Sequence record: SRR20825019_934
Direction: 5' to 3' (one strand)
DNA: 32,501 nt
Below, one piece after another: positions 3,102 to 19,965 of the stretch. The notes under the pieces were generated by a model, which was given only the letters and a program-made list of their open reading frames with translations, was not told the DNA's origin and did no database searches. The stretch's first letter is position 1; every line of letters starts with the position of its first letter. The position numbers and the translations under genes are program-made.

Positions 3102-4615
3102 CAACTGTACCTTTTCTCGCCGGTGTCGTCGTCGAACCAGTCGAACGGCGTTTCAGAGAGGTTGGCCACGACGCTTTGCACCTTGGTGTAGGATTCATAG
3201 CAGGCGATGCCGTTTTCCTTGCCAAGGCCGCTGTCCTTGAAGCCGCCCCAGGGGGAGGCCGGGTCCACCCTGTGGTGGTCGTTGATCCAGACGATCCCGG
3301 CCTCGATCCGGCTTGCCACGCGATGGCCTTTTGCGCCGTTGCGGGTCCACACGCTGGCCGCCAGTCCGAACTGGGTGCTGTTGGCAAGTGCGATCGCCTG
3401 TTCTTCGCTGTCGAAGGGGATGACGCAGACGACGGGGCCGAAAATCTCTTCCTGCGCGATGCGCATGTCGTTGCGCACATCGCAGAAGATCGTCGGGGTG
3501 TAGAAATAGCCGCCCTCAAGCTCCGGGTTTTCGGGGCGTCTGCCGCCGGCGGCAAGCGTTGCACCCTCTGCCTTGCCGATCTCGACATATTTCTCGACGA
3601 GATCACGCTGTTTGGCGGAGATCATCGGCCCCATCTGGGTGGCGGGGTCTTCGGGGCGGCCGATGCGGATCGCGTTGGCGCGTTCCACCAGTCCGGCGAG
3701 CACTTCGTCGTAGACGGTGCGCTCTACCAGGAGCCGCGCGCCCTGCACGCAGGTCTGGCCGGCCGCGATGAAAGAGGCAAAGAGTGCGGCCGGAACGGCC
3801 TGGTCCGCCATGTCCTCGAAGATCAGCACGGACGCCTTGCCGCCGAGTTCGGCGGAGACCGGAATGAGGTTCCTGCCGGCATTCGCGGCAACCACGCGGC
3901 CGGTTTCTGTGCCGCCTGTCAGATCGATCTTGGCGATGCGCGGATGGTTGGTCAGCGCCGCGCCTGCGGTGGCGCCGAAACCCGGAACGACATTGTAGAC
4001 GCCCTTCGGCAGACCGGCCTGTTCCAGCACTTCCGCCAGCATCAGCGGTGTGAGCGGGGCAAGCTCGCTCGGCTTGACCACCATGGTATTGCCGGCGGCA
4101 AGCGCCGGGGCGACCTTCTTGGTGAGGATCAGAAGCGGATGGTTCCAGGGCGTCACCAGCCCGACCACGCCGAGCGGCTTGCGCACGGTATAATTGAGAT
4201 GGCTCTTGCCGAACGGGTGAACGGCGCCTTCATGGGTGCGGGCGACGGCTGCGAAATAAGAATACCATTCCGGCAACCGCTGCAACTGAGCCTTCATCTC
4301 GCGCACCGGCCGGCCGGTCTGGGCAACCTCGATATCGATGAAAGCGGGCAGCCGCTCCGCTAGGATCTCGGCGGCGCGATTGAGAATGCGCGCGCGGACA
4401 TCCGGCCCCATGGCGCCCCAGGTTTCAAAGGCGGCTTCGGCCGCCTGCACGGCGCGTTCGATATCATCCTCCGCACCCTCGGCGACGGTTGCGACGAGCG
4501 CGCCGGTGGCAGGGTTTTCGACCGGGAAGGTCTTGCCGCTCGAAGCCGGTTCGAACTTGCCGTCGATGAAGAGGTCGAGATGGATTGTTTCGCTCTTTGC
4601 AGCCATTGCAGTCAT
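3101..4615 (-). CDS. NAD(P)-dependent aldehyde dehydrogenase
   Basis: TPWNHP, KPSE, TGGTETG, ELGGK, catalytic Cys in GQTCV, EEIFGP, GGFKDSGLGKE. Confidence 0.95.
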   Translation of the reverse strand: MTAMAAKSETIHLDLFIDGKFEPASSGKTFPVENPATGALVATVAEGAEDDIERAVQAAEAAFETWGAMGPDVRARILNRAAEILAERLPAFIDIEVAQTGRPVREMKAQLQRLPEWYSYFAAVARTHEGAVHPFGKSHLNYTVRKPLGVVGLVTPWNHPLLILTKKVAPALAAGNTMVVKPSELAPLTPLMLAEVLEQAGLPKGVYNVVPGFGATAGAALTNHPRIAKIDLTGGTETGRVVAANAGRNLIPVSAELGGKASVLIFEDMADQAVPAALFASFIAAGQTCVQGARLLVERTVYDEVLAGLVERANAIRIGRPEDPATQMGPMISAKQRDLVEKYVEIGKAEGATLAAGGRRPENPELEGGYFYTPTIFCDVRNDMRIAQEEIFGPVVCVIPFDSEEQAIALANSTQFGLAASVWTRNGAKGHRVASRIEAGIVWINDHHRVDPASPWGGFKDSGLGKENGIACYESYTKVQSVVANLSETPFDWFDDDTGEKRYS

Positions 4616-5523
4616 CAGTCTTTTCCTTTGGCTCCGATCTCGGCGAGATACCAGTCGAGGATTTCCTCACCCGTCCACATCTGCACCCCTTCATGACCGA
4701 GGATGTGATCATAGAGCATTTCGAGATACTTGATCCGGTGGGGCGCGCCGGTCAGATAGGGGTGGATCGAGATCGCCATGATCCGGGGCGTCGTCGCTCC
4801 GTCCTGCCACAGCCGCTCGAAATGATCCTTGCCGCGGCGATATATCTCGTCGGACGGCTGACCCTGAACGGCGGTCATCACGACATCGTTGATCTCGACG
4901 GTATAGGGAACAGATGTCAGCCGCCCGGAGCGGGTCCTGATCGGCACCGGCTGGTCGTCGAGCACCCAGTCGGCGACATATTCGATCCCGGCCTCGGCCA
5001 GCAGGTCAGCAGTTTCGTCGGTCTCGGTGATGCCGGGGCTTTCCCAGCCGCGCGGGGCCTTGCCGGAAAAGGCGCGGATCGCGTCCATGGTCTTGGCGAT
5101 CGCTTCGGCCTGATCATCGACCTTGTGCATCGGTTTCTGGTGAAAGCCATGGCCCATGAATTCCCAGCCAGCGGACAGGGCGGCTTCGGCGGCCTGCGGA
5201 TAGGTGTCGATGGCTGAACCGTTGATCGCCAGCGTTGCCTTCAGGTCGCGCGATTTCAGCGCATCGAGAAAGCGCCAGAAGCCCACCCGCATGCCATATT
5301 CGTGCCAGGCCCAGTTGGGAACGTCGGGCAGCATCGGGACGCCCATGGGCGGGGGAAGGACCGCCCGCGGCATCGCCGCTGCAGGGTTCCAGGCCTCGAC
5401 GTTGACAATCGTCCACACCGCGACGCGCGCGCCGTTGGGGAGGCTGAGAGGAGGGCGGTCCGTGATCGGGCGGTAGGGCACGCGTTCGCGTACCGATGCG
5501 CCGAGCCTGTCTGCCTCTGTCAT
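4615..5523 (-). CDS. Polysaccharide deacetylase family protein (PuuE/allantoinase-like, CE4 fold)
   Basis: IVNVEAW, WHEYGMRVG, GWEFMGHG, PRGWESPG, DWVLDDQP, SIHPYLTGAPHR; RBS GGAAGGGAG. Confidence 0.9.
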   Translation of the reverse strand: MTEADRLGASVRERVPYRPITDRPPLSLPNGARVAVWTIVNVEAWNPAAAMPRAVLPPPMGVPMLPDVPNWAWHEYGMRVGFWRFLDALKSRDLKATLAINGSAIDTYPQAAEAALSAGWEFMGHGFHQKPMHKVDDQAEAIAKTMDAIRAFSGKAPRGWESPGITETDETADLLAEAGIEYVADWVLDDQPVPIRTRSGRLTSVPYTVEINDVVMTAVQGQPSDEIYRRGKDHFERLWQDGATTPRIMAISIHPYLTGAPHRIKYLEMLYDHILGHEGVQMWTGEEILDWYLAEIGAKGKD

Positions 5524-5548
5524 CTCAAAACTCCCTTCCTGTCGTCTG

Positions 5549-5584
5549 TGATATATTAGATATTAAATACCGTCTGCTTGTCAA
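5549..5584 (-). promoter_or_regulatory. Sigma70-like promoter of the deacetylase operon with candidate GntR operator repeats
   Basis: Minus-strand TTGACA (5579-5584)-N18-TCTAAT; 7-bp periodic ATATATT AGATATT AAATACC at 5551-5571 overlaps the -10. Confidence 0.5.
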
Positions 5585-5640
5585 AGGCTTTTTGAGCCAC
5601 TAAACTTTTGCCCACCTTGAAGCGCATGAAAGCGCGGGAC

Positions 5641-6369
5641 ATGAATTGGGATGGAAACGTGAAAAAACTCGGACTTCAGAAGCATGTGCAGGTCAGCCGC
5701 GCGGAGGCTGTGCGCGAAGCGCTCAGAGATGCCATCCTGTCAGGCCTGCTGCCGCCCGGCGAGCGTCTCAATCTGGACGAGATCGCCGAGGAGTTCGAGG
5801 TCAGCCGCATGCCGGTGCGCGATGCGGTGCGCCAGTTGGAGACGGAAGGTCTTGTGAAGGTGTTCCCCTACAAGGGGGTCGAGGTTTCCGCGCTGACCAT
5901 CGGCCAGCTCGAGGAACTCTTCACCTTGCGCAGCGCGCTTGAGCAGGTCGCGATAGAACGCGCCGTACCGCGCCTTTCCAAGGCGAGCCTTGCCGAGGCG
6001 CGCAGGATTCTCGAAAAGATCGATGCGCTGGAAGACCGCACCGCGCGCTGGCTGGAACTGAACGCACGGTTCCACCACAAGCTCAACGAGGCCTGTGGCT
6101 GGACGCGGCTTCTGGAAATGATCGACACGCTGCGCAGCAATGCCGACCGCTATGTCAGGACCTACGTTTCCAGCGCTGGCCTGACCGTTTCCCAGCAACA
6201 GCACTGGGCGCTTCTGGAGGCCTGCGAGGCCGGCGATGCGGCGGCCGCCAGGAAGGTCATCGACGCCCATCTGATGGGAACCGCCGAAAGCCTTATCGCG
6301 ATTCTGCAGCAAAACGGCGGCGAGACCGCGACCGCTCCGGCAAAGTTGAAAGACTTCGCTACCGACTAG
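5641..6369 (+). CDS. GntR-family (FCD domain) transcriptional regulator
   Basis: wHTH LRDAILSGLLPPGERL...VSRMPVRDA and FCD domain (NARFHH, QQHWALL). Start uncertain (5608, 5626, 5641 or 5659). Confidence 0.92.
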   Translation: MNWDGNVKKLGLQKHVQVSRAEAVREALRDAILSGLLPPGERLNLDEIAEEFEVSRMPVRDAVRQLETEGLVKVFPYKGVEVSALTIGQLEELFTLRSALEQVAIERAVPRLSKASLAEARRILEKIDALEDRTARWLELNARFHHKLNEACGWTRLLEMIDTLRSNADRYVRTYVSSAGLTVSQQQHWALLEACEAGDAAAARKVIDAHLMGTAESLIAILQQNGGETATAPAKLKDFATD

Positions 6370-6510: not shown

Positions 6511-7140
6511 TCAGATCCGATGCATGGCCTCGATTAACAGCTTCGCTTTCTGCGCGACGTCGGCAACGTCCATGCCGGGCTTGTAGAGCGCCCCGCCAAT
6601 GCCGAAACCGGATGCGCCGGCCCTGGCATAGGCTTCCATGTTTTCCGGCGTCACGCCGCCGACGGCGAAGACCGGGATTTCTTTCGGCAAGACCGCTTTC
6701 CACGCCTTGATGACGACCGGCGGAATGGCCTCGGCGGGGAAGGCCTTGACGCCGGCGGCGCCAGCCGCGATGGCGGCGAAGGCTTCCGTGGGCGTTGCAA
6801 CGCCGGGCAGGCTGATCATGGCTCTTGCGGCTGTCGCTTCGATCACCGCCGGGTTTGCGTTGGGCGAGATGATCACCCTCGCACCGGTCGCTGCGACATC
6901 GGCGACTTGCGCTGGCGTCAGTACGGTGCCGGCCCCGATCAGCGCGCGGTCACCGAAACGAGCCTGCAGCTTTTCGATGCTCCTGAGCGGATCGGGCGAA
7001 TTGAGCGGCACTTCGATGATGCGCCAGCCGGCCTCGATCAGCGCTTCGCCGACCGGCTCTGCCTCGTCGGGTCTGATGCCGCGCAGAATTGCGATCAGAT
7101 TGCATGCTTTCAGCGCTTCGGTGAAATTCATCGCGTTCAT
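6511..7140 (-). CDS. dgoA: 2-dehydro-3-deoxy-6-phosphogalactonate aldolase
   Basis: LIAILRGI, IEVPLNSP, GAGTVL, Schiff-base Lys in VKAFPAE, AVGGVTPEN; overlaps the dgoK stop. Confidence 0.95.
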   Translation of the reverse strand: MNAMNFTEALKACNLIAILRGIRPDEAEPVGEALIEAGWRIIEVPLNSPDPLRSIEKLQARFGDRALIGAGTVLTPAQVADVAATGARVIISPNANPAVIEATAARAMISLPGVATPTEAFAAIAAGAAGVKAFPAEAIPPVVIKAWKAVLPKEIPVFAVGGVTPENMEAYARAGASGFGIGGALYKPGMDVADVAQKAKLLIEAMHRI

Positions 7141-8078
7141 TCCTGTTCCGTCGATTGCAGTTTGCCGGTGATGCGTTGGACGCCGAGGGTTGCGGCGTCC
7201 TCGGGCCCCGGCTTGATCTCCAAGTCAAAAAGCGGCGCGATGCGCCCGTAGCGCAGGGTCAGCGCCGTGTTGCCGATGATGCCGATCGCTTCTCCCGGAT
7301 GCAGCCATCCGGCAGCCCGCGCCTGCCGGAATTCCGAGCCGATGAGGAGGCCCGAGACGTAATCGGCGATGTCTTCGGGCTGAAGGGCGCCTGCCAGAAT
7401 GCCGCTGCGGGCGCTGAAGACTGCGGAAAGCAGGGCATCGGCGGCGGGTTCGTCGCCTGCCGCAAATTCCGCCCCGCGATCGAAGGCGGACCAGATTGGC
7501 GCGCTGCCGGGAGCGCGCTCGGCGGCGCGCGCGATGAAGGAATGCCGGGTCAAAAGCGCGAATATTTCTCCGGTGGCAAAGGTCTGGAACGCGGCGATAC
7601 GACCGTTTTCAATACGCGCCCACTTGCTGTGGGTGCCGGGCAGCACCAGCGTGCGGTCCTCGGCAAGGCCATAGCCGACGATCTGCGTTTCCTCGCCGCG
7701 CATGACATCGGGAAACGGCTTTGCCGCCGGGTCGCGCATGCCGGGCAGGAAGGTCATGGCCGCGCCGTTTTGCAGCGTGATGCGCTTCGCGCCAGCGGCA
7801 AGCTCCGCTGGGCCTGCCGGCGCATCGACATAGGGCACCTCGATCCAGCCGCTGCGGCTGGTGATCATGCCGCTGGCAACGACCGGGAAGGGGTCGCGTT
7901 CAGCAAACCACGCGCCGATCGTCGCCATAAGCGCCGCCTCGAACGCGCCGCCTTCCACGAACTGGATGCCGCCGCCCTGGCTTTCGCGTCTGTCCAGCAC
8001 AAGCCCGTCGGACGAAAGCAGTGTGGCGCGGAGCGAACTGGTGCCCCAGTCGAGAATGGCGGTGACGGTATGGGTCAT
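7137..8078 (-). CDS. dgoK: 2-dehydro-3-deoxygalactonokinase
   Basis: DWGTSSLRA, SGMITSRSGW, PDVMRGEETQ, LPGTHSKW, SGLLIGSE. Confidence 0.95.
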   Translation of the reverse strand: MTHTVTAILDWGTSSLRATLLSSDGLVLDRRESQGGGIQFVEGGAFEAALMATIGAWFAERDPFPVVASGMITSRSGWIEVPYVDAPAGPAELAAGAKRITLQNGAAMTFLPGMRDPAAKPFPDVMRGEETQIVGYGLAEDRTLVLPGTHSKWARIENGRIAAFQTFATGEIFALLTRHSFIARAAERAPGSAPIWSAFDRGAEFAAGDEPAADALLSAVFSARSGILAGALQPEDIADYVSGLLIGSEFRQARAAGWLHPGEAIGIIGNTALTLRYGRIAPLFDLEIKPGPEDAATLGVQRITGKLQSTEQE

Positions 8079-8195
8079 GCGGTCGGTCTCATTTCCGGGC
8101 AAGGGCGTTTCGCGATTTCACGGAAGCGCCGGTCTTGGCGCATTTCGCGTCGAAGAAATAGCAGCCTGCAAAAGACTGCATCGCAAAATCACGCC

Positions 8196-8208
8196 ATTTA
8201 TGTATGAT
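8196..8208 (-). promoter_or_regulatory. Candidate FadR/DgoR operator upstream of dgoK
   Basis: Minus-strand ATCATACATAAAT resembles the sites at 9103-9188. Confidence 0.45.
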
Positions 8209-8222
8209 CTTTTATTTGATTT

Positions 8223-9011
8223 CTAGTCACTTTGTTGCGTTTTTGGGGCGAGCCGCGTCCGGCGCAGCGCGTCGGTCATCTCGCTTCTGGCGACGCCGAT
8301 GAGTTGTTCCATGGCGTGGCGCGCGGCGTCCGGCCGGCGCATCCTGATCGCTTCAAGCACATCCTGATGAGCGAGGATCGCCTGCTCATGGGATTGGCTG
8401 GCGCGGTTCGTCAGACGAAAGCTCGCCAGAAGCGCTGCTCGGATGGCGCTGGCGAACTGGCGATAGACCCAGTTGCCGCTGGCGTTGATGATTGCGGTGT
8501 GGAATTCGAGGTCGGCCCGGCTCCACGCCTCATTGTCGCGCGCGTTGGCCTCGACCATATCCTCGAACGCCTTTGCGATCTGGTAAAGCTGTCTGGCATT
8601 GGCATTGGCGGCCGCCTGCGCCGCCGCTGCGGGCTCGAGAAGCTGTCGGGCGTCGATCAGCGATGAATAGAAAGAATCGTCCGCTCCGACGGCCAGCATG
8701 ACGTCGAGCACGATCGGATCGAGATAGTTCCAGTTTTCCCGCGGCAATACGATGGTGCCGGCGCGGGTGCGGGAGCGCACCATGCCGAGGGCGGAAAGAT
8801 ACTGCATGGATTCGCGCAGGCTGGTGCGGCTGACCCCGAACCGTTCCGTCAGTTCCACCTCGTTGGGCAGGGTTGCGCTCTCCGGAAATGTGCCGGAAAC
8901 GATCAATTCAACGAGGGACTGCAGCAGCGCCTCCCGTACGCTGCGCTTGCCGCGCTGGGCGATCGGCGCGCCGTCTTCCGTCAGGATTTGGGTCATTGCT
9001 TCGCTTTTCAC
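8223..9011 (-). CDS. FadR/GntR-family regulator (DgoR-like)
   Basis: LPNEVELTERFGVSRTSLRE wHTH, ADLEFHTAIINASGN FCD domain; lies upstream of dgoKA. Confidence 0.9.
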   Translation of the reverse strand: MKSEAMTQILTEDGAPIAQRGKRSVREALLQSLVELIVSGTFPESATLPNEVELTERFGVSRTSLRESMQYLSALGMVRSRTRAGTIVLPRENWNYLDPIVLDVMLAVGADDSFYSSLIDARQLLEPAAAAQAAANANARQLYQIAKAFEDMVEANARDNEAWSRADLEFHTAIINASGNWVYRQFASAIRAALLASFRLTNRASQSHEQAILAHQDVLEAIRMRRPDAARHAMEQLIGVARSEMTDALRRTRLAPKTQQSD

Positions 9012-9102
9012 TGGTTCCCCTTGGTTGCGAGATGCCGTGATTCCTGAGCGCTTCTCTTGCCGAGTGCTTCAGGCAGGCTTCGTTCCCGCTTTCATTGTGG
9101 GT

Positions 9103-9188
9103 AATATGATAGATATGGCTTCTTCATTCAAATTGAAAAATAAATCATATTTATAATTGACATTGATCGGACGTATTATAAGTATCGT
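9103..9188. promoter_or_regulatory. Divergent promoter region with repeated ATCATA(C/T)-type sites
   Basis: AT-rich; TTGACA at 9157-9162 flanked by ATCATATTTATAA (9144-9156) and inverted TTATAAGTATCGT (9176-9188); AATATGAT at 9103-9110. Confidence 0.55.
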
Positions 9189-9243
9189 GCCGCCGGGATG
9201 GCAACGGCCTCCGGCAGGGAAAACGTCCACAGGGAGGAGCACA

Positions 9244-10215
9244 ATGAAGCTCATCATCAAGGCGGCCTTGTTGGCTGCCGCCGCATTGTCGAGTGCGACA
9301 GCCGCTTCGGCGCAGGAAGACCTCAAGGTCGGCGCGATCTACATGGATGCGCAGGGATTTTATGCCGGTGTCCGCAAGGGCATCCAGGACGGCGCGGAAG
9401 ATGCCGGCCGCAATCTCGTCATCGTCGAAACCAACGCCCAGGGCGATGTCAGCAAGGAATCCTCCTTCATTGACTCGCTGATTTCCGCCGATGTCGAGGC
9501 GATCATCGTATCGCCGGTCTCCGCTGACGGCTCCTATCGCGCGATCCGTCGGGCCCACGACGCCGGCATTCCGGTGGTCTGCTACAATACCTGCCTCAAC
9601 GAACAGGACATGAAGGAATACATCTCCGCCTATGCTGTCGGCGACCCTTATGACTTCGGTCACAAGCTCGGCGATGCCGCGGCCGATTACTTCATTGCGG
9701 AAGGTAATGATGCGCCCAAGATCGCCGTGCTGAACTGCGAGTTCGTCGAAGTCTGCATCACTCGCAGAGAGGGTTTCGAGGCAGCGCTGATGGCCAAGGT
9801 GCCGGGCGCCGAGATCGTGGCCAACCAGGAAGGCGCCACCCTCGACAAGGCCGTTTCGGTCGCCACCACCATGCTGACCTCCAATCCTGATGTCGACGCC
9901 TTCTTCGGCGAGGCCGGCGGCGCCACGCTCGGGGCCGCGCGCGCCGTGCGTTCGCAGGGCAGGGAAGGCGAGGTCGTCGTTTTCGGTGGCGACATGACCA
10001 CCGAAATCGCCCAGGAACTTGCCGATTTCACGGTTATCAAGGGCGTTGTCGATATCTCCGGCCAGGGCCTTGGCAAGCTTGCGCTGGCGCAGGCGATCAA
10101 CTCGATCGATGGCACGCCGCCCGAAGGCATCAGGGTGCCGTATGATATCGATCTCTACCAGTCGTCGGAAGATGGCAAGGCCTGGCTCGAGGCGCATGCC
10201 GACGGCATTCCGTGA
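9244..10215 (+). CDS. yphF: Sugar ABC transporter substrate-binding protein, YphF-like
   Basis: Signal peptide; RBS GGGAGGAG; GAIYMDAQGFYAGVR, VCYNTCLN, NCEFVEVC and DMTTEIAQEL closely match E. coli YphF as recalled. Confidence 0.88.
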   Translation: MKLIIKAALLAAAALSSATAASAQEDLKVGAIYMDAQGFYAGVRKGIQDGAEDAGRNLVIVETNAQGDVSKESSFIDSLISADVEAIIVSPVSADGSYRAIRRAHDAGIPVVCYNTCLNEQDMKEYISAYAVGDPYDFGHKLGDAAADYFIAEGNDAPKIAVLNCEFVEVCITRREGFEAALMAKVPGAEIVANQEGATLDKAVSVATTMLTSNPDVDAFFGEAGGATLGAARAVRSQGREGEVVVFGGDMTTEIAQELADFTVIKGVVDISGQGLGKLALAQAINSIDGTPPEGIRVPYDIDLYQSSEDGKAWLEAHADGIP

Positions 10216-10266
10216 TCGACAGTCCGGCCCAATCTGACTGCTGACATGCAGCCGGGCAAACATCGA

Positions 10267-10291
10267 GATGCCGCCGCAACCCGGCGGCATC
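10267..10291 (+). other. Intercistronic hairpin after the binding-protein gene
   Basis: Perfect 10-bp stem GATGCCGCCG-caacc-CGGCGGCATC; no U-tract. Confidence 0.6.
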
Positions 10292-10310
10292 GCCATCAAC
10301 GGGAAGATCA

Positions 10311-11837
10311 ATGACGTCTGCATCTCAGATCAACAGTCCGGAAATGCCGGCGCTCGTCGCCATGACAGGGTGCACGCGGCGCTATCCCGGCGTGCTGGCA
10401 CTCGACAATGCCGATTTCGAGGTCGCGCCGGGCGAAGTGCGCGCGCTTCTTGGCAAGAACGGCGCCGGCAAGTCGACGCTCATTCGCATGCTGACGGGCG
10501 CAGAAGTGCCCGACAGCGGAACCGTCCTGATCGACGGTGAGGAATTGACCCATACGGGTTCCGCCCGCGCGCAGCAGGCCTTTTCGCAGGGCGTGCGGGT
10601 GGTCTATCAGGAACTCAGCCTCATTCCCGGCATGTCGCTCGCCGAGAATCTGTTCCTCGGCCGATGGCCGCGAAAGGGCGGCGTCATCCGCCATCGCACC
10701 ATGATCGCCGAGGCCAACGAGGCAATGCATCGTCTCGGCCTCGAGCTTTCGCCCGATACCCTCGTCTCGGCGCTCAGCCCGGCCGAACGGCAGCTTCTGG
10801 AAATCGCAAGGGCGCTGCTCGGCAATCCCAAACTGGTGATTCTCGATGAGCCGACGAGCTCGCTTGCGGCAGCGGAGGCGGAGAAGGTGATGGCGGCCGT
10901 GACGCGCGTTGCAGCGCAAGGCATCGCGGTGATCTATGTCAGCCACCGGATGAATGAAATCCGCCAGATCGCCCATTCGGCCACGATCATGCGCGATGGC
11001 CGGATCATCGATACCGTCGATGTAAAAAACGCCGACACCCGCGAGATCGTCCGCCTCATGCTCGGCTCGGAAAGCGCCGAGGCGGCCGTGCTGGAAGATG
11101 CAAGCCAGCCGGAAATCGTGCTTGAGGTCAGGGATCTGGCGGTGGCGCCGAAACTGTCGTCGGTGTCGTTCTCGCTCAAGAAAGGCGAGGTTCTGGGGAT
11201 CGCCGGTCTGCTTGGTTCCGGCCGGACGGAACTGTTGCAGGCCATCATGGGGGTGCGTCGCGGCGACGCCGGCGAGATCTTCGCCAATGGCAAGCCGGTC
11301 AAATCGCTCGGCTACAAGCAGATGGTCAAGCTCGGCTTCGGCTATACGCCCGAAAGCCGCAAGGAAGAGGGAATCGTTCCGCTGCTCGGCGTCGATGAGA
11401 ACACCCTGTCGACGCGCTTCGAGGGCGTCACCGTCAACGGCGTCCTGTCGGCGCGGCGGATGGCGGAGGCGACCCGGAAGATCATTGACCGGCTGCATAT
11501 CAAGACGGCGCGGACCGACACGCCGATCGGCACGCTTTCCGGCGGCAACCAGCAAAAGGTCGTGATCGGCCGCTGGGTCTATGCCGGCAGCCGCATCCTT
11601 CTGCTCGACGAGCCCACCCGCGGCGTCGATATCGAGGCCAAGGCCCAGATCTATTCCATCATTCGCGAACTTGCCGCCGAAGGCCGCAGCATCGTTTTCG
11701 TCTCCAGCGAGATCGAGGAACTGCCGCTGGTGTGCGACCGGGTGCTGGTCCTCAGGGACGGCGCGCTCCGGGAAGAGTTCCGTTCCCCCAACATCGATCA
11801 GGACACCTTGATGGCGGCCTGCATTTCAGGACACTGA
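10311..11837 (+). CDS. yphE: Sugar ABC transporter ATP-binding protein (double NBD), YphE-like
   Basis: GKNGAGKST, LDEPTSSL, LSGGNQQK, LDEPTRGVD. Confidence 0.9.
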   Translation: MTSASQINSPEMPALVAMTGCTRRYPGVLALDNADFEVAPGEVRALLGKNGAGKSTLIRMLTGAEVPDSGTVLIDGEELTHTGSARAQQAFSQGVRVVYQELSLIPGMSLAENLFLGRWPRKGGVIRHRTMIAEANEAMHRLGLELSPDTLVSALSPAERQLLEIARALLGNPKLVILDEPTSSLAAAEAEKVMAAVTRVAAQGIAVIYVSHRMNEIRQIAHSATIMRDGRIIDTVDVKNADTREIVRLMLGSESAEAAVLEDASQPEIVLEVRDLAVAPKLSSVSFSLKKGEVLGIAGLLGSGRTELLQAIMGVRRGDAGEIFANGKPVKSLGYKQMVKLGFGYTPESRKEEGIVPLLGVDENTLSTRFEGVTVNGVLSARRMAEATRKIIDRLHIKTARTDTPIGTLSGGNQQKVVIGRWVYAGSRILLLDEPTRGVDIEAKAQIYSIIRELAAEGRSIVFVSSEIEELPLVCDRVLVLRDGALREEFRSPNIDQDTLMAACISGH

Positions 11838-11848
11838 CGGAGACGATG

Positions 11849-12850
11849 ATGTCGCACAATAACGCTGCCGACCCGGCCGCACCGAAGAAGAAAAGCGGCT
11901 TTGGCGTTTCGAAGCATATCAACGAACTCAGCCTGTTTGTGGCAATCGCGTTGCTTTATGTGATTTTCGGAACAACCGCCTACGGCTTCCTGTCGTTCAA
12001 CAATCAGGTGAATATTCTCCGCGATGCGGCGACGATCGGCATCGCGGCGTGGGCGATGACGCTGATCATCATCTCCGGCGAGATCGATGTCAGCGTCGGT
12101 CCGATGGTCGCTTTCGTCTCCGTCGCGCTGGCCTATCTGCTGCAATGGGGCTTCCCCACGCCGATAGCCTTCCTGCTGGCGGTAGCGCTCGGCGCCGGGC
12201 TCGGCGGCATTTCCGGCGTGCTGCGCGCCTATTTCGATGTGCCGTCCTTCGTCGCCACGCTCGGCATGTGGAGCGCGCTGCGCGGTCTGGCGCTGTTTTT
12301 CACGGATGCGCTGCCTGTCTCGATCGGGCGCAACGATACGCTGGATGCGCTCGACCGTTCGGTGCTGGGCATCCCGCCGGCGGCGATCATCATGCTCGTC
12401 CTGTTCGCGGCCTTCGCCTTCGTCAGCCGCAAGACGGCGTTCGGGCGGTCGGTGTTCGCGATTGGCGGCAATGCGCATGCGGCCTATCTCAGCGGCATCA
12501 ACGTATCGCGGATTCGCGTGGCGATCTTTGCGATCGGCGGCGCGATGGCGGCGATCTCCGGTATCCTGCTGGTCTCGCGTCTCGGCTCGGGCAATGCGAC
12601 GGCGGCAAGCGGCCTCGAATTCGATGTGATCGCGGCCGTGGTCGTCGGCGGCACGGCGCTCTCCGGCGGCCGCGGCTCCATGCTGGGAACGCTGCTCGGC
12701 GTTCTGGTGATCACGCTCATCGGCAACGGCCTGGTGCTTCTCGGCATCAATCCCTTCTTCCAGCAGGTCGTCCGGGGGCTCATCATCGTTGTCGCCGTGC
12801 TCGCCAACATGCAGGCGATCAAGCGCAGCCTGGCCCGCAACAAGGGGTGA
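11849..12850 (+). CDS. yphD: Sugar ABC transporter permease, YphD-like
   Basis: IISGEIDVSVG, VPSFVATLG, AAVVVGGTALSGGRG; start 11846 or 11849. Confidence 0.9.
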   Translation: MSHNNAADPAAPKKKSGFGVSKHINELSLFVAIALLYVIFGTTAYGFLSFNNQVNILRDAATIGIAAWAMTLIIISGEIDVSVGPMVAFVSVALAYLLQWGFPTPIAFLLAVALGAGLGGISGVLRAYFDVPSFVATLGMWSALRGLALFFTDALPVSIGRNDTLDALDRSVLGIPPAAIIMLVLFAAFAFVSRKTAFGRSVFAIGGNAHAAYLSGINVSRIRVAIFAIGGAMAAISGILLVSRLGSGNATAASGLEFDVIAAVVVGGTALSGGRGSMLGTLLGVLVITLIGNGLVLLGINPFFQQVVRGLIIVVAVLANMQAIKRSLARNKG

Positions 12851-12856
12851 GGGCAG

Positions 12857-13744
12857 ATGACGGTGGTTGATATCAGCTCCGGCGCCCTGTCACTGAGGGC
12901 ATCCACCAATGGCGGCGTGATCCTCGGCTTCTGGCGGGAGGGGGAAGGCGGCCGTGTGCCGTTGCTGCGTCCGGCACCTGACGGGGCGGATGCGCTGTCG
13001 TCGTCGTGTTACCCGCTGGTGCCGTTCGGAAACCGGGTGAGGGACAACCGGTTCGACTTCATGGGCCAAAAATACGCCCTGACCGCGAATACCGACTGGG
13101 ATCCGCATTACCTGCATGGCGAAGGATGGCTTTCGGACTGGGCGATCGAACAACACGAGGCCGACCGGCTGGCGATGCGTTTCCGCCATTCAGGCGGCGG
13201 CACGCCCTATGTCTACGAGGCGTGGCAGAGTTTTTCGCTTGGCGACGGTGAATTGCAGCTTACCCTCACCGTCGAGAACCAGGGGAGCGAGGCCCTGCCG
13301 TTCGGCCTCGGCTGGCATCCCTATTTCCCGATGACGCCGGAAACGACGCTGATGGCGCCGGCGCGAAAATTCTGGACCGAGGTCGAGGGATGGCTGCCGG
13401 GCGAAGCAACCGAGATTCCGCAGGACCTCGATTTCAGCAAAGCGGCACCCCTGCCGCACCGCTGGGTCAACAATGGCTTCGAGGACTGGTCCGGCGAAGC
13501 GGTGATTACCTGGCCGGAACGCGCGACGCGGCTTTCCCTGAAGGCGGAACCGCTGTTCAGGCACGCTTTCCTGTTCGTCTCGGATACCGCGTTCGACCCC
13601 GACTTTGCGCGGGACTATTTCTGTTTCGAACCGATGTCGCATCTGGCGGACGGGCACAATATGCCGGATCTCGGAGGGCTTCGCGTTCTTCAGCCCGGTG
13701 AGAAACTGTCGGGCAGCATCTGGCTGGGAGCGCAGGACCTATGA
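12857..13744 (+). CDS. yphB: Aldose 1-epimerase (mutarotase) family protein, YphB-like
   Basis: PLVPFGNR, YLHGEGW, GLGWHPYF, FCFEPMSH; FVSDTAFD segment as in YphB. Confidence 0.88.
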   Translation: MTVVDISSGALSLRASTNGGVILGFWREGEGGRVPLLRPAPDGADALSSSCYPLVPFGNRVRDNRFDFMGQKYALTANTDWDPHYLHGEGWLSDWAIEQHEADRLAMRFRHSGGGTPYVYEAWQSFSLGDGELQLTLTVENQGSEALPFGLGWHPYFPMTPETTLMAPARKFWTEVEGWLPGEATEIPQDLDFSKAAPLPHRWVNNGFEDWSGEAVITWPERATRLSLKAEPLFRHAFLFVSDTAFDPDFARDYFCFEPMSHLADGHNMPDLGGLRVLQPGEKLSGSIWLGAQDL

Positions 13745-15378
13745 GTGATCGCAACGAAACCACCGGGCAGGGACGCTACGACTATATCCTCGTCGGCGGC
13801 GGCAGTTCGGCCTGCGTGGTCGCGGCCGGTCTGGTCGAAAGCGGCGCGAGCGTGCTCATGCTGGAGCGCGGCCCGGCGAAGGCCAGCCCGATCATGCATT
13901 TCCCCGCCGGCTACATGAAGTTCCTGGCAAAGGACACTTATCTTTCGATGCACAAGACCGAGCCCCAGCATCAGCTTGACGGGCGCGGGCCGATCGTGCC
14001 GCAGGGCAAGGTGCTTGGCGGCGGCAGCACGGTCAACGCCATGGTCTACATGCGCGGTCAGGCGGCCGATTTCGACCTCTGGAACGAATTGGTGACGGAC
14101 GGCGAAAACGACGGCGCATGGTCCTACCGGGATATTCTGCCCTACTTCAAGGCGCAGGAAGACAACGACCATCTCGCCGGCGAATATCACGGCGTCGGCG
14201 GCCCGCTGAAAATCTCCGATCTCGGCCACACCAGCCCGATGACCCGCATTTATGTCAAAACCCTTCAGGGCATGGGCATTCCCTACAACCCGGATTTCAA
14301 CGGTGCGCACCAGTTCGGCGTCGGTTTCATGCAGCACACCATCGACTGGCGGACGCGTCGGCGCTGCAGCGCGGTCGACGCGTTTCTGGAGCCGGTCATG
14401 GCCAATCCGCTGCTGACGATCGTGACCGGGGCAACGGTCACGGCGATCCGCATGGAGGGCGACCGGGCGGTCGGCGTCGATTACGTGCGCGGCGGGGCCG
14501 GAACGTCCGCGTTCGCGGACAGCGAAGTGATTTTGGCGGCTGGGGCATATCAGACGCCCAAACTGCTGATGCTTTCCGGGATCGGGCCGGAGGACGAACT
14601 CGCCCGCCACGGCATCGGGGTCAGGGTCCCGCTTGCCGGCGTCGGGCGCAATCTGCAGGATCATTATGAATGCCCTGTGGTCGCCACCACCAAGGGGGCT
14701 TTCGGCTATTACGGGCAGGATCGCGGCTGGCCGATGATCAAGGCGGGCCTTCAGTACCTGCTGTTCAAATCCGGCCCGGCTACGACGACCGGCGTCGAAA
14801 CCTGCGCCTTCCACGATCCGGAGGGCAATAACGATCGGCCGACGATCCAGATGTTCTGCGTGCCGACCGTCTATCTCGACCGCGATGTGATGGGCACGGA
14901 CCCCGGCGATGGTGTGACCATCAATTCGCTGCTTCTGCGGCCGAAGTCGCGCGGCTCGGTGACGCTCACCTCCAGCGATCCGTTCGCCGATCCGGTGGTC
15001 GATACCCGGATTTTCAGCCACCCCGACGATCTCAGGGTGACGATGGCGGGTTTGCGTTACGCCCGCACCGTGCTCGCCGCCTCGCCGATGCGCGAACTGA
15101 TCGACAGGGAAATTTTTCCGGGCGCCGATGTGACCAGCGACGAGGCGATCGCGACGCATTGCAAGCGCACCGTCAAGACCGGCTATCACCCGGTCGGCAC
15201 CTGCCGGATGGGCCGCGACGATGATCCGGACGCCGTGCTCGACAGTCGCCTCCGGGTCCGGGGCACAAGGGGCCTCAGGGTCATCGACGCCTCGCTGATG
15301 CCGACCATCGTCAGCGGCAACACCAATGCCGCCGTTCTTGCCGCCGCCGCCAAGGCGACCGACCTCATACTTCCCTGA
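13741..15378 (+). CDS. GMC-family FAD oxidoreductase (cytoplasmic)
   Basis: DYILVGGGSS, GKVLGGGSTVNAMVY, GVGRNLQDH, YHPVGTC, SGNTNA (His/Asn pair); no signal peptide. Confidence 0.93.
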   Translation: MSDRNETTGQGRYDYILVGGGSSACVVAAGLVESGASVLMLERGPAKASPIMHFPAGYMKFLAKDTYLSMHKTEPQHQLDGRGPIVPQGKVLGGGSTVNAMVYMRGQAADFDLWNELVTDGENDGAWSYRDILPYFKAQEDNDHLAGEYHGVGGPLKISDLGHTSPMTRIYVKTLQGMGIPYNPDFNGAHQFGVGFMQHTIDWRTRRRCSAVDAFLEPVMANPLLTIVTGATVTAIRMEGDRAVGVDYVRGGAGTSAFADSEVILAAGAYQTPKLLMLSGIGPEDELARHGIGVRVPLAGVGRNLQDHYECPVVATTKGAFGYYGQDRGWPMIKAGLQYLLFKSGPATTTGVETCAFHDPEGNNDRPTIQMFCVPTVYLDRDVMGTDPGDGVTINSLLLRPKSRGSVTLTSSDPFADPVVDTRIFSHPDDLRVTMAGLRYARTVLAASPMRELIDREIFPGADVTSDEAIATHCKRTVKTGYHPVGTCRMGRDDDPDAVLDSRLRVRGTRGLRVIDASLMPTIVSGNTNAAVLAAAAKATDLILP

Positions 15379-15390
15379 TCGGAACCCGAC

Positions 15391-16539
15391 ATGAAGATCA
15401 CCAAGCTCACCACCTATCTGGCCCCGCCGCGCTGGCTGTTTCTGAAGATCGAGACCGATGAGGGCATTGTCGGCTGGGGCGAGCCGGTTGTGGAAGGCCG
15501 CGCGCTCACCGTTCAGGCGGCCGTCAACGAGATGGCGGATTACCTCATCGGCAAGGATCCGTTCCTGATCGAGGATCACTGGACCGTGCTTTATCGCGGC
15601 GGGTTCTACCGGGGCGGCGCGATCCACATGTCGGCGCTGGCGGGTATCGACCAGGCGCTGTGGGATATCAAGGGCAAGGCGCTCGGGCAGCCGGTCCACG
15701 CGCTGCTCGGCGGCCAGTTGAGGAACCGCATCAAGGTCTATTCGTGGATCGGCGGCGACCGTCCTTCCGACGTTGCAAGGAACGCGAAAGAGGTGGTCGC
15801 GCGCGGCTTCAAGGCCATCAAGCTCAATGGCTGCGAGGAAATGCAGATCGTCGATACCAATGAGAAGGTCGAAAAGGCAGTGGAGACCATCGCGATCATC
15901 CGCGAGGTCGTCGGTCCCCATATCGGCATCGGTGTTGATTTTCACGGTCGGGTCCACAAGCCTATGGCCAAGGTTTTGGCCAAGGAGCTGGAGCCCTACA
16001 AGCTGATGTTCATCGAGGAGCCGGTGCTTTCGGAAAACAGGGAAGCCCTGAGGGAGATCGCCAACCATTCCTCCACGCCGATAGCACTTGGGGAGCGGCT
16101 CTATTCGCGCTGGGATTTCAAGCCGATCTTCGAGGGCGGCTATGTCGACATCATCCAGCCGGATCTGTCGCATGCCGGCGGCATCACCGAATGCCGCAAG
16201 ATCGCCGCCATGGCGGAGGCGTACGACGTCGCGCTGGCGCCGCATTGTCCGCTCGGGCCGATCGCGCTTGCCGCCTGCCTTCAGGTGGATGCCGTCGCCT
16301 ACAACGCCTTCATCCAGGAGCAGAGCCTGGGGATCCACTATAACGAGACCAACGACATTCTGGACTATATTTCGAACAAGGACGTCTTCGAATATGCCGA
16401 TGGCTTCGTCAGCATACCGCAGGGGCCGGGGCTGGGCATCGAGATCGACGAGGCCTATGTGATCGAGCGCGCCAGAGAAGGCCATCGCTGGCGCAATCCG
16501 ATCTGGCGTCATCCGGATGGAAGTTTCGCGGAGTGGTGA
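15391..16539 (+). CDS. dgoD: D-galactonate dehydratase
   Basis: [61 protein letters not shown]. Confidence 0.96.
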
Positions 16540-16549
16540 GGAGAGTACA

Positions 16550-17329
16550 ATGACGGGACGGCTTTCCGGCAAGAATATATTCGTCACGGGCGCGGCGCAG
16601 GGCATCGGTCTTGCGATCGCAAAGGCCTTCGCGAACGAAGGTGCGTCGCTGTTCATGGTCGACCGCGATGGCGCGCTTCTGGAACGCGAGGCCAGGGCGC
16701 TTGGCGCGCGTGGAGGAGCGATCGGCTGGTGCGCCGCCGATATCACGGATGCCGGCGCGATCGCGGCCGCGATGCGTCAGGCGGCGAAGGAAATCGGACC
16801 GGTCAACGCCTTGGTCAACAATGCCGGCGTCAACGTCTTTGCCGAACCGCTCGAGACGAGCGACGAGGAATGGAACCGCTGCTTCGACATCAATCTCAAG
16901 GGCGCGTGGAACTGCTGCAAGGCCGCGCTTCCGGGCATGATCGCGGCTGACGGCGGCGTCATCCTCAACATCGCCTCCACCCATGCCTTCACCATCATCC
17001 CGCATACCTTTCCCTATCCGCTGGCAAAGCATGCGCTGCTCGGCATGACCAAGTCCCTCGGCCTTGAATATGCCGCACGCAACATTCGGGTAAACGCGCT
17101 GGCGCCCGGCTATGTGGCGACGCAGAAGGTCATCGACTACTGGAACAGTTTTCCCGATCCCGAGGCTGCGAAAGCGGAGACCATGAGCCTCCATCCCGGC
17201 GGCCGGATCGCCACCCCCGGCGAGATCGCGATGGCGGCGGTGTTCATGATCTCCGACGAATGCCCGTTCATGAATGCGACCTGCCTGACGGTCGACGGCG
17301 GCCTCAGCGTCCAGCAACATCCTGCCTGA
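16550..17329 (+). CDS. Short-chain dehydrogenase of the dgo-associated type (candidate galactose 1-dehydrogenase)
   Basis: TGAAQGIG, NNAG, STHAFTIIPHTFPYPLAKH (YxxxK); RBS GAGGAG. Confidence 0.85.
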   Translation: MTGRLSGKNIFVTGAAQGIGLAIAKAFANEGASLFMVDRDGALLEREARALGARGGAIGWCAADITDAGAIAAAMRQAAKEIGPVNALVNNAGVNVFAEPLETSDEEWNRCFDINLKGAWNCCKAALPGMIAADGGVILNIASTHAFTIIPHTFPYPLAKHALLGMTKSLGLEYAARNIRVNALAPGYVATQKVIDYWNSFPDPEAAKAETMSLHPGGRIATPGEIAMAAVFMISDECPFMNATCLTVDGGLSVQQHPA

Positions 17330-17419: not shown

Positions 17420-19300
17420 TCAAAGGGACTGCGCGAGCAGGACCGAGGGTAGCGTTATCAGAAGGCGCGCGGTGTCTTTCGAGCAGGAGAAGGCGACATC
17501 GCCGCCAAAACTGCGGGCGCGTTTTGCCATGTTGGCGAGACCATGGCCCTTGCCCGGACAAGGGCTGCCGGTGACATCATTCTCAACGGTGATGATGGCT
17601 TCTCCGCTTTGATTGGCGGTGGCCGAAATCGATATATGCGTTGCCGGACCGTGTTTCACCGCGTTGGTGACGGCTTCCTGCAATATTCTCATGAGCGCGA
17701 GGGCGTTCGAGGGGGTGACGCCGGTGACGTCCGGCATTTCTTTGGTCAGCCAGTCGAGCCGGATCCCCATACGGTGCAATTGAGGGCCGGTCCGCTCGCG
17801 AAAGCTGGCCAGCGCAACGCGCAGATCCGTGTCGCTCAGATCGAGCGACTGGATGACCAGCCGCAGATCACCGAGAGCATCACAAGCGGTGGAGCGGATC
17901 GCGTCACGGTTAAACGGCTCTCTCTCCGCCTGTGCCATGATCGACACCAGATAGCCGCTCAACCCATCATGAAGGTCCTGCATCAGCCGGTCGCGCTCCC
18001 GCTCCAGTGTCATGCGGGTTGTGTTCCTGCGTTCTTTCTCGTGCAGCAGACCCAACTCGCTCTCTTGCTCGTCGAGCTTTCGTCTCAGGCGGGTGTTCGC
18101 GCTGTCAAGCTGGTTCAGGCTTTGCACCAGCCTGATGGTAATGATCAGAAGGGCGGCCAGGAGAGTGGCCATCTCGATATAGGGGGTGAGCATATGCGCG
18201 CCGTCGGTAATACCGAACAGCAGGCCGACATCGTGAAGCCCGAACAGCAGGCACAGCGCGAGCGGGATTGCGATAATGGCGGCGATCGGGTCTCTCGATC
18301 GACAATAATGCGCGATAGCGATCCACAGGGCCACGACCATGGCGGCAATGCTCAGAATGTTGCCGGTGGCCGTAATGACCGGTCCCGAGGCGACGCCGGC
18401 CCAATACGCCATGAGCAGTGTGATCGGCAAACCCAGGGCGATGTAGAGTGGTTTCCGGACGAACTTCCGGCCGGCCATTTCGAGCGTCAGGGCGACGGCG
18501 ATCAGAAGGGTGCCCAGTTGCAACGTTGCATAATAAAGTCGCGGCACTCCGGTTCCAGCAAGGGTGCAGACATATTGGGTGGCCGTCAGCGCGAGGCTGA
18601 AGGCCATGATCAGGCTGAACCAGCGGAAAAATCCATCCGCGGGCCGTAGCAGCGCGATCATGATGACGCTGATGGTAATGATCGCCTTGAGCAGAAGCGA
18701 GGTGAAACGCCACTGTTCGAAGACGAAATCATACAGTTTCTGGTAGGGCAGAAAGACGGAATACGAGGTCAGGTAAACCGGCGACAGATAGCTTGAGATC
18801 CAGCCATCGACACGGCTATGCAGGATCTGCAACTCGTTTTCACCCTCGCGAACCGCCGAGGGGTTGATGTTGAACACATAATAGTCGCCGAGGCGCGGTG
18901 AGGTGAGGAGCGAGACATCGCGCCGTTCAAGGCGCATTCCGTTCAGGCGAACGTTAATGGTCTGGCGCACCGCCGGCAGGAAAAGAACGGGGTGGTGGGC
19001 AGGGATCGCGTTCGATGTGAAATGGATCTTGTAAAGCGCATCGGTGCGCGATGTAGTCATCACGTGCGGGCGGGTGTGGGGAAGCGATATTTCCCGAGAC
19101 GGCGAACCGCCTTCTTCAAGAATCGCGGAACGCAGGACGACCGCATCGCGCGGCGTTGGCAGGGATAGAAAGAATGGCATAGCGCAGCAAACCGCGATGC
19201 CAATCAGGAAAAGCGCCGGGCGCAAAACAGACCATAATTCCAGGCCCGTGATCCCGGCCCGAAGCTTCTTCGCCAACAAAACCGTGGGACCTGCAGTCAA
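17420..19300 (-). CDS. Membrane sensor histidine kinase (HisKA_3 type) with extracytoplasmic domain and multi-TM region
   Basis: H-box ERDRLMQDLHDG, N-box QEAVTNAVKH, GHGLANM; about 7 hydrophobic segments follow a soluble domain (7TM-DISM-like layout). Confidence 0.88.
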   Translation of the reverse strand: MTAGPTVLLAKKLRAGITGLELWSVLRPALFLIGIAVCCAMPFFLSLPTPRDAVVLRSAILEEGGSPSREISLPHTRPHVMTTSRTDALYKIHFTSNAIPAHHPVLFLPAVRQTINVRLNGMRLERRDVSLLTSPRLGDYYVFNINPSAVREGENELQILHSRVDGWISSYLSPVYLTSYSVFLPYQKLYDFVFEQWRFTSLLLKAIITISVIMIALLRPADGFFRWFSLIMAFSLALTATQYVCTLAGTGVPRLYYATLQLGTLLIAVALTLEMAGRKFVRKPLYIALGLPITLLMAYWAGVASGPVITATGNILSIAAMVVALWIAIAHYCRSRDPIAAIIAIPLALCLLFGLHDVGLLFGITDGAHMLTPYIEMATLLAALLIITIRLVQSLNQLDSANTRLRRKLDEQESELGLLHEKERRNTTRMTLERERDRLMQDLHDGLSGYLVSIMAQAEREPFNRDAIRSTACDALGDLRLVIQSLDLSDTDLRVALASFRERTGPQLHRMGIRLDWLTKEMPDVTGVTPSNALALMRILQEAVTNAVKHGPATHISISATANQSGEAIITVENDVTGSPCPGKGHGLANMAKRARSFGGDVAFSCSKDTARLLITLPSVLLAQSL

Positions 19301-19965
19301 AATTGCATCAGTCCCTGCCGGGTTGCCTCAAAAACGGCCTCGGACCGGTTTGTGACCTGAAGCTTGCGATAGATATTGCGGATATGGACTGGCACGGTTT
19401 GTCTCGAGATGTGCAATTGCTGAGCGATTTCCGCATAGGTGAATCCTTTGGAAATCCCCCACAATATATCCATCTCTCGTGACGTCATACTGACGGCCGG
19501 CTCCCGCTTGCGGGTATCGGGCGATTGTTCGCAGAACTGTTTCACAAGGACGCGGGCGATCCGGGACGATATCGGCGAGTGCCCCGCCATCAGGCTCTCG
19601 ACAGCCTCGATCAGGTCCAGGCTGTCGGCATCCTTGAGCAGATAGCCCGAAGCCCCGGCGCCGATCGCCTCAAGCACGGACCTGTCGTCGGCAAGAACGG
19701 AAATGACCATAGACTCGGCCCGTGCATGCGTTTTGCGAAGCGCTCGGATCGCATCGAGACCGCTGCCATCGGGCAAGTTCAGGTCCGTGATCAGAAGATC
19801 GACTTCACCCCGCTCATAGGCCGCAAGCGTCTCCGCCAGGGTCGCACAGGAAGCGACGAGATCGCCGTCCTTCCAGCCGGTGATCAGGCTGGCCAGTCGC
19901 TCGCGCACCACGTCGTCATCCTCGCACAAAACGATCCGATAGGGTGCCAGAGAAGAACTCTCCAT
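19297..19965 (-). CDS. NarL/LuxR-family response regulator
   Basis: EDD, TDLNLPDGSG, GASGYLLK, TSREMDIL...VHIRNIYRKL; ORF extends to 20034, but ATG 19965 is more likely. Confidence 0.93.
   Translation of the reverse strand: MESSSLAPYRIVLCEDDDVVRERLASLITGWKDGDLVASCATLAETLAAYERGEVDLLITDLNLPDGSGLDAIRALRKTHARAESMVISVLADDRSVLEAIGAGASGYLLKDADSLDLIEAVESLMAGHSPISSRIARVLVKQFCEQSPDTRKREPAVSMTSREMDILWGISKGFTYAEIAQQLHISRQTVPVHIRNIYRKLQVTNRSEAVFEATRQGLMQF

Follow-up and report, generated by a model that had tools for sequence, protein, structure and literature searches.

The window analyzed here is a single stretch of 32,501 nucleotides from sequence record SRR20825019_934. It contains a ten-gene cassette (6511 to 17329) that joins orthologues of the E. 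coli YphF, YphE, YphD, and YphB proteins to enzymes of the De Ley-Doudoroff pathway for D-galactonate. The gene set is real, conserved, and widespread among soil bacteria. Its downstream pathway is known, whereas the module that provides entry to it is undescribed. We read the cassette as an alditol-scavenging add-on to this pathway. A galacto-configured alditol would be imported, and its terminal alcohol would be oxidized to an aldose. Judged from sequence comparison, this reading has about an even chance of being correct. Galactitol is the simplest candidate for the imported alditol, and we name it tentatively. Another or a substituted alditol appears less likely again.

An earlier note on this DNA had listed the ten genes with their order and strands, and the annotation of the window bore out all of them. 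The minus strand contains a FadR/GntR-family regulator, dgoK, and dgoA. A plus-strand operon (9244 to 17329) diverges from these genes. It encodes a CUT2 periplasmic binding protein (SBP; 9244 to 10215), a double ATP-binding cassette (ABC) ATPase (10311 to 11837), an ABC permease (11846 to 12850), a protein with the aldose 1-epimerase (mutarotase) fold (12857 to 13744), a GMC flavoprotein (13741 to 15378), DgoD (15391 to 16539), and an SDR (16550 to 17329). The successive gaps are 95, 8, 6, -4, 12, and 10 bases, as tight a packing as the note had described. The permease start was placed at the ATG at 11846 rather than at the longer open reading frame (ORF) from 11732, and the SDR start was placed at 16550. 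The nearest relatives are from Martelella.

The first four products of the operon are orthologues of YphF, YphE, YphD, and YphB. Their identities to these E. coli proteins are 55%, 57%, 72%, and 46%, respectively. A reciprocal search gave the best match in both directions, and the orthology claimed earlier holds. The ATPase contains PF00005 twice, the permease contains PF02653, and the mutarotase contains PF01263. The mutarotase also matches PDB entry 3NRE (E 1e-87) and contains the His87, His154, and Glu258 motifs, which we assume to be catalytic as in GalM. Window DNA from 9300 to 13200 matches 5,406 of 5,426 E. coli genomes, and the eight rows listed all lie on yphE, yphD, yphC, and yphB. 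E. coli YphF found its top match at 56 to 59% identity (E 1e-116 to 1e-122) in five of five cassette-bearing genomes, with the next match at 39% or less. No other named SBP model of the E. coli type gives the window SBP more than 73 bits.

The enzymes of the De Ley-Doudoroff pathway are clearly assigned. DgoD scores 716 bits with NF010624 (cut-off, 311) and shares 63% identity with its E. coli counterpart. It has the same residue at seven of seven positions that we take to be catalytic, and it is a canonical D-galactonate dehydratase. The 2-keto-3-deoxygalactonate kinase gene dgoK (7137 to 8078, minus strand, ATG at 8078) matches PF05035 (E 4e-80, 269 bits), and its product is 33% identical to E. 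coli DgoK. The dgoA product (6511 to 7140, minus strand) scores 283 bits with NF006600 (cut-off, 207) and is 49% identical to E. coli DgoA. The SDR belongs to the PRK07063 family (NF005469, 410 bits; cut-off, 306), which is unnamed in NCBIfam. We propose that it is a D-galactose/L-arabinose 1-dehydrogenase. A domain and family scan of the window proteins found no YphC, YphG, YphH, YphA, DgoT, or lactonase. Family-model scans found no galactitol 2-dehydrogenase or phosphotransferase system (PTS), tagatose kinase, or tagatose-6-phosphate epimerase in the window.

The genome collection contained 195 relatives of the SBP, and the analysis covers the best 80 of these. Their loci are GMC type (60) or YphC type (20). 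GMC-type loci were found in Rhizobium, Agrobacterium, Shinella, Labrys, Salipiger, and others. They contain the regulator, SBP, ATPase, permease, mutarotase, and GMC genes in the order of the window, and the FadR-type regulator is present in all 60. Of the 60 loci, 57 continue with dgoD (at least 60% identity) and 55 have the SDR; three loci without dgoD and/or the SDR stop at a contig edge. The link between yph and dgo genes therefore extends beyond one genome. Of the three conditions that the earlier note had named as refuting its reading, two (no Yph orthology and a linkage confined to this genome) thus do not hold. dgoK is adjacent in 6 and dgoA in 7 of the 60 loci, so the conserved unit is the regulator, ABC importer, mutarotase, and GMC enzyme (plus dgoD and the SDR). 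The note had also read the Yph system as feeding galactonate breakdown. This part is partly supported. The orthology and the conserved link favor it, and the rarity of adjacent dgoK and dgoA refines it.

The YphC-type loci (Mesorhizobium, Acidisoma, Nocardiopsis, and others) encode a YphC orthologue that is 49 to 67% identical to the E. coli protein. A more distant dehydratase (30 to 60%) is present in 16 of 20 and an SDR of at least 45% identity in 15 of 20. The dehydratases beside the importer in Mesorhizobium and Nocardiopsis are 38% and 52% identical to that of the window and belong to a different lineage. The mutarotase is present in 76 of all 80 loci. YphG and YphH are encoded in none of the 80, within the locus DNA examined. 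Two minimal cassettes, L003 and that of R. leguminosarum WSM1325, contain only the ABC, mutarotase, and GMC genes; dgoD and the SDR are truly absent. Such a reduction would be in keeping with a common aldose as the product. SMP-30 lactonases are encoded in L022, L054, L078, and L080. In Nocardiopsis and Salipiger, the loci also encode an SMP-30 lactonase and a kinase, together with an aldolase in Salipiger.

The GMC enzyme and YphC are mutually exclusive. The first is encoded in 60 loci and the second in 20; no locus encodes both or neither. A genome-wide search of 50 GMC-type genomes, run without a positive control, found no YphC match at E<=1e-70, a threshold that 50%-identity orthologues pass by far in a separate search. 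No GMC protein above 51% identity was found in the 20 YphC-type genomes, three of which hold paralogues at 44 to 51%. In L061, a GMC protein of 25% identity from another group adjoins YphC.

The window GMC protein contains PF00732 and PF05199 and belongs to the choline-dehydrogenase-like group. It scores below the BetA cut-offs (470 against 605 for NF002550 and 385 against 732 for TIGR01810). The nearest solved structure is 8B7S (E 7e-91), and the His483 and Asn527 motifs are present. We take 8B7S and the other nearest solved GMC enzymes to act on primary alcohols, converting CH2OH to the aldehyde. No close relative of the window protein that is solved or characterized was found. Its relatives carry automatic database names that include "sorbosone dehydrogenase" and choline dehydrogenase. 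We propose that it is an alditol terminal-alcohol oxidoreductase that stands in for YphC.

YphC may perform the same oxidation. E. coli YphC and all of 80 wider relatives (the best 80 of at least 562, metagenomic, 50 to 60% identical to Nocardiopsis YphC) contain Cys at the third catalytic zinc position and the Asp/Glu marker of NAD use. We assume that this Cys pattern marks alcohol and aldehyde dehydrogenases and that polyol-to-ketose enzymes have Glu instead. An aldose-reductase-like aldo-keto reductase (AKR) gene directly adjoins 20 of the 80. Eight of the 80 lie no more than three genes from galK, galT, or galE. These eight fall in several branches of a quick tree without bootstrap, which included 10 outlying dehydrogenases and served only to place the gal-linked members.

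Two further observations concern these enzymes. YphC and AKR pairs occur in loci L091 to L170 (e.g., L156:7971-10134 and L111:429-4828), some with GH29 or GH43 genes. The pairing suggests that a rare aldose, L-galactose for example, may be inverted by reduction and subsequent oxidation. GMC paralogues at 54% identity are encoded at L084:2633-11447 and L085:4287-10539. Their neighbors are either a CUT1 importer, a DgoD-like protein, and a DHDPS-family aldolase or the pair of an IlvD/Edd dehydratase and an amidohydrolase. These loci may use the chemistry of the GMC cassette for other sugars.

The GMC enzyme is also linked to a polyol permease. GMC relatives at 67 to 71% identity lie directly behind a permease of the major facilitator superfamily (MFS) on Pantoea plasmids and in genome G353. 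The permease passes the RbtT/DalT/CsbX model TIGR00897 (470 and 480 bits; cut-off, 375). The Pantoea GMC locus encodes a divergent regulator with 59% identity to E. coli YphH. Also encoded there are an M24-fold protein and, after it, a PRK07063 SDR. Matches to the GMC, M24, and YphH-like proteins were each found on 12 Pantoea plasmids. The passages of the Pantoea literature consulted give no dulcitol phenotype for P. dispersa. The position of the GMC enzyme in place of YphC and its linkage to a polyol permease, two points that the earlier note had not made, shift the predicted substrate toward an alditol; galactonate and free galactose become less likely.

In both Pantoea and G353, the GMC enzyme occurs together with an M24-fold hydrolase. 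Its subfamily occurs in several sugar operons (L082:9661-10740, L178:7806-8891, L144:5719-6735, L183:7034-7999, and L185:6986-8047). Its positions are behind the GMC gene, between YphC and galK-galT, after xylA-xylB (Thermus), and near fucose isomerase (Deinococcus). By eye, against motifs that we presume for the fold, it seems to be without the usual metal ligands. A role as an unrelated mutarotase or lactonase is possible.

A rhizobial sister cassette separates the GMC enzyme from the other enzymes. It was retrieved from genome G402 (L232:6192-13568) and encodes DgoD, a GntR regulator, AraFGH, a mutarotase, and an SDR but no GMC protein. Its DgoD is 90%, its SDR 81%, and its mutarotase 40% identical to those of the window. 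The importer passes the AraG and AraH cut-offs. SDR orthologues at 77 to 81% identity sit with AraFGH, a mutarotase, and dgoD. Two further loci with AraFGH and the SDR contain no GMC gene within 16 kb. AraFGH-type genes adjoin 11 of the 60 GMC-type loci. Both importers of L242 are encoded in one gene run ahead of the shared enzymes. The GMC enzyme thus goes with the Yph importer and not with aldose oxidation as such. The sister cassettes suggest that the mutarotase, SDR, and DgoD handle an aldose of the L-arabinose/D-galactose type and that the GMC enzyme would be needed only with the Yph importer. The L232 cassette is separate from the chromosomal galactose cluster, and its substrate could be D-fucose, L-arabinose, or D-galactose.

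From the gene identities, conservation, GMC/YphC exclusion, neighbors, and palindrome, we infer the following route. YphFED would import a galacto-configured sugar alcohol. The GMC flavoenzyme would oxidize one terminal CH2OH to the aldehyde, giving D-galactose or a like aldose. In other genomes, including E. coli, the NAD-dependent zinc enzyme YphC would do the same. The YphB mutarotase would equilibrate the ring forms of the aldose. The SDR would oxidize C1 to give a lactone, which would open by a host lactonase or by itself. DgoD, DgoK, and DgoA would then yield pyruvate and glyceraldehyde 3-phosphate. Organisms with the Leloir pathway would instead pass the aldose to GalK. The FadR-type protein would repress the operon at a palindrome beside the -35 hexamer. 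The more specific proposal, a bacterial route in which the terminal carbon of galactitol is oxidized to D-galactose by two unrelated enzymes (the GMC flavoprotein and YphC), is a tentative one.

The regulator (8223 to 9011, minus strand) contains GntR and FCD domains and is 34% identical to E. coli DgoR. It is a probable local repressor of the cassette. An alignment of 59 intergenic regions with that of the window contained one conserved block. Its core is the palindrome ATAAAT-N3-ATTTAT (9140 to 9154), which lies two bases upstream of a TTGACA hexamer (9157 to 9162). The exact palindrome is present in 48 of 60 GMC-type loci, always between the regulator and the SBP, and in none of 20 YphC-type loci. 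A 16-base form matched 43 of 50 host genomes, compared with one genome for the reversed control. Of 30 fetched matches, 28 adjoin the SBP; the other two lie off the cassette near unrelated genes, and these 30 sites gave no shared extra regulon member. The palindrome behaves as a candidate local operator. A sigma-70-like promoter, TTGCCA-18-TATAAT (9175 to 9204, minus strand, 11 of 12 consensus bases), faces the regulator. A promoter scan gave 3 sites where 2.3 were expected, so this site is a consensus match only. Terminator counts were at chance level too.

The structure model of the SBP has a predicted local distance difference test score (pLDDT) of 94.6. We rejected naming a ligand from this model: all CUT2 proteins match it about equally (Z 31 to 34, 18 to 24% identity). 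No close liganded structure was found among its solved-structure matches, the nearest being 18 to 24% identical. Residues that we take to be the RbsB sugar contacts were mapped by alignment only. The SBP keeps the Phe15, Phe16, Arg141, and Asp215 positions and does not keep Asp89, Arg90, Phe164, Asn190, and Gln235. The family has invariant acidic residues at D11, E142, E145, E199, and D246 (mature protein numbering).

Other features of the family were also noted. YphF-type proteins contain two invariant cysteine pairs, C89/C93 and C141/C147 of the mature protein, which probably form disulfides. Martelella mediterranea (L240:3473-12614) encodes a second Yph-like ABC system (39 to 45%), alongside other catabolic genes as well as an SDR and an enolase-family enzyme. 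Nocardiopsis (L080:12784-13998) encodes a DUF4380-like protein in the position of YphB, directly behind YphC.

Several points weigh against alditol import feeding the De Ley-Doudoroff pathway. The SBP pocket, with its partial set of RbsB contacts and its acidic residues, would fit an open-chain polyol, and it would fit an amine too. The GMC/YphC split largely tracks lineage, so few independent events lie behind the 80 loci. The wider YphC relatives, at 50 to 60% identity, need not share one substrate, and some of the gal genes beside them are in pieces. The dehydratase of Mesorhizobium-type loci is only 38 to 40% identical to DgoD. The domain scan of the window found no lactonase. The proposed role of the SDR as a sugar 1-dehydrogenase is inferred only from its AraFGH and dgoD neighborhood. 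The chromosomal galD-type protein encoded upstream of dgoK has only about 33% identity to the window SDR. That chromosomal SDR resembles D-xylose 1-dehydrogenase, and a passage of PMC5507952 links this group to the characterized R. meliloti GalD.

The known galactitol route and the E. coli relatives add to these points. A GatZ/KbaZ-like epimerase, which we take to mark the known galactitol-to-tagatose route, is encoded elsewhere in 37 of 50 GMC-type hosts and in 61 of 251 genomes of the family sample. The cassette therefore shows no sign of replacing the tagatose route in these hosts; the search covered the genomes of 50 of the 80 loci. Many E. coli strains are dulcitol negative, though yph is present in 5,406 of 5,426 genomes. 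The K. pneumoniae yph locus (L187:7184-14603) encodes YphA, YphH, YphG, a sugar porter, and an epimerase that is only 29% like YphB. This locus contains no ABC importer and no oxidoreductase. The porter is 75% identical to one adjoining the Pantoea dispersa GMC cassette. YphG relatives adjoin GH2 genes or an arabinose importer. The content of this locus and the neighbors of YphG suggest that the YphH signal may be a sugar or glycoside.

The alternative that survives best is that the importer takes D-galactose as such, a ring form of it, or a small galactoside, and that the GMC enzyme or YphC is an aldose 1-dehydrogenase or an accessory enzyme beside the SDR. We consider it unlikely. It is consistent with the CUT2 fold, which is common to aldose-binding proteins, with the near-universal mutarotase, and with the Klebsiella locus, where a porter, YphG, and an epimerase occur without an oxidoreductase. 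YphC also has a weak match to PF16912, the glucose dehydrogenase C-terminal domain, and the GMC gene is retained where the SDR is lost. However, the AraFGH aldose-importer cassette works without a GMC enzyme, both importers can share one operon (L242), and the polyol permease travels with the GMC gene. An aldose dehydrogenase adjoining galK would compete with galK. Several RbsB-type aldose contacts, as we presume them, are not in the pocket.

Slightly less probable is a different substrate: a ketose (e.g., D-tagatose, oxidized at C1 as by L-sorbose dehydrogenase), a polyol that contains nitrogen, or a further alditol with an aldonate that also dehydrates to 2-keto-3-deoxygalactonate. The "sorbosone dehydrogenase" label on GMC relatives would fit a ketose, and the invariant acidic residues of the SBP would suit an amine. 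The M24-fold hydrolase with the GMC enzyme in Pantoea and G353 and the divergent dehydratase in YphC-type loci may be read the same way. The window DgoD, however, is canonical, the cassette encodes no reductase, deaminase, or aminotransferase, and the same M24 subfamily is present in unrelated neutral-sugar operons.

L-galactose, used head to tail, is a still weaker candidate. The GMC enzyme would oxidize C6 to give L-galacturonate, and the SDR would reduce C1 to give D-galactonate. In genomes with YphC and an AKR, L-galactose would become galactitol and then D-galactose. This scheme needs no lactonase, in keeping with the window, and GMC enzymes of the choline-dehydrogenase-like group can oxidize an alcohol twice. 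It is also consistent with the AKR that directly adjoins 20 of 80 YphC relatives and with GH29 fucosidase-family genes in five loci; GH29 enzymes can release L-galactose. Against it, close orthologues of the SDR serve the AraFGH aldose cassette, the Nocardiopsis and Salipiger versions come with lactonases, and Pantoea has the polyol permease. The annotated GMC-type loci contain no AKR, and the AKR of L069 is of a different subfamily.

That the yph and dgo genes are neighbors and not one pathway is very improbable: dgoK and dgoA adjoin few loci and two cassettes truly lack dgoD and the SDR, but dgoD is present in 57 of 60 loci, lies 12 bases behind the GMC gene in the window, and is replaced beside the importer by dehydratases of other lineages in Mesorhizobium and Nocardiopsis.

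The rest of the window contains other modules. Genes at 27 to 6369 encode a FrsA-like hydrolase, an XRE-cupin regulator, an asparaginase, an aldehyde dehydrogenase, a PuuE-like deacetylase, and a GntR regulator. They possibly serve the breakdown of a nitrogen heterocycle. A membrane sensor kinase and a LuxR-type response regulator are encoded at 17420 to 20034 (minus strand). About 1 kb of lower GC content (0.515) follows, with no recognized gene (20035 to 21000). A catabolic operon at 21000 to 27566 (minus strand) encodes a ROK regulator, an M20 hydrolase, a sugar-type binding protein, a permease, a YhfX-like alanine-racemase-fold protein, and an ABC ATPase. Long antisense ORFs at 13690 to 16746, 17543 to 18649, and 108 to 2027 were dismissed; they have no Pfam match and overlie real genes. 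Rfam gave no match in the window.

In the cassette, the Yph system is pared down to a handful of genes and linked to a downstream pathway that is already known, and the comparison yields a testable role for the E. coli yph genes. If the alditol reading is correct, the cassette would be a new entry route to galactose catabolism and would provide an enzyme for the conversion of an alditol to an aldose. It would also give a name to a GMC family now listed in databases as choline or sorbosone dehydrogenase. A galactitol-to-D-galactose route, if true, would assign E. coli YphFED and YphC. YphC with an aldose reductase would then turn L-galactose into D-galactose via the symmetric alditol.

Among open-licence papers and preprints (subscription papers and bioRxiv supplements lay outside this scope), we found none that assigns a yph function or a galactitol-to-galactose route. 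The table of a 2023 review lists yphFED as a putative sugar ABC transporter only (PMC10305011). A study of uropathogenic E. coli mentions a yphF mutant and gives no substrate in that passage (PMC11032443). The induction of YphF on levoglucosan, as given in a passage of PMC8753852, was set aside as unspecific; six other ABC components were induced too.

The cassette resembles several known systems. It shares YphF, YphE, YphD, and YphB (46 to 72% identity) with the E. coli yphH/yphGFEDCB/yphA locus, in the same order. Unlike that locus, it does not encode YphC, YphG, YphH, or YphA; the GMC, dgoD, and SDR genes follow, and a FadR-type regulator replaces the ROK regulator. It shares family-typical DgoD, DgoK, and DgoA with the De Ley-Doudoroff systems (E. 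coli dgoRKADT and the rhizobial galD-dgoK-dgoA-lactonase cluster), a pathway outlined in a passage of PMC6927180. It differs from them in having no DgoT or lactonase, an SDR of another family, an extra oxidase, and the Yph importer upstream. The rhizobial AraFGH-mutarotase-SDR-dgoD cassette has a GntR regulator as in the window, but it has an AraFGH importer and no GMC enzyme. With the primary-alcohol GMC enzymes (the chloramphenicol-inactivating oxidoreductase 8B7S, choline dehydrogenase/oxidase, and L-sorbose dehydrogenase), the window GMC protein shares the fold family and the His/Asn pair, but it falls below the BetA cut-offs. The known galactitol routes, SmoS with a tagatose operon in S. 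meliloti and the gat PTS in E. coli, have the same substrate as that proposed here. S. meliloti grows on galactitol via SmoS, with ABC import in rhizobia, according to a passage of PMC10433430. These routes oxidize a secondary alcohol to tagatose or tagatose phosphate, whereas the route proposed for the window would oxidize C1 to give the aldose.

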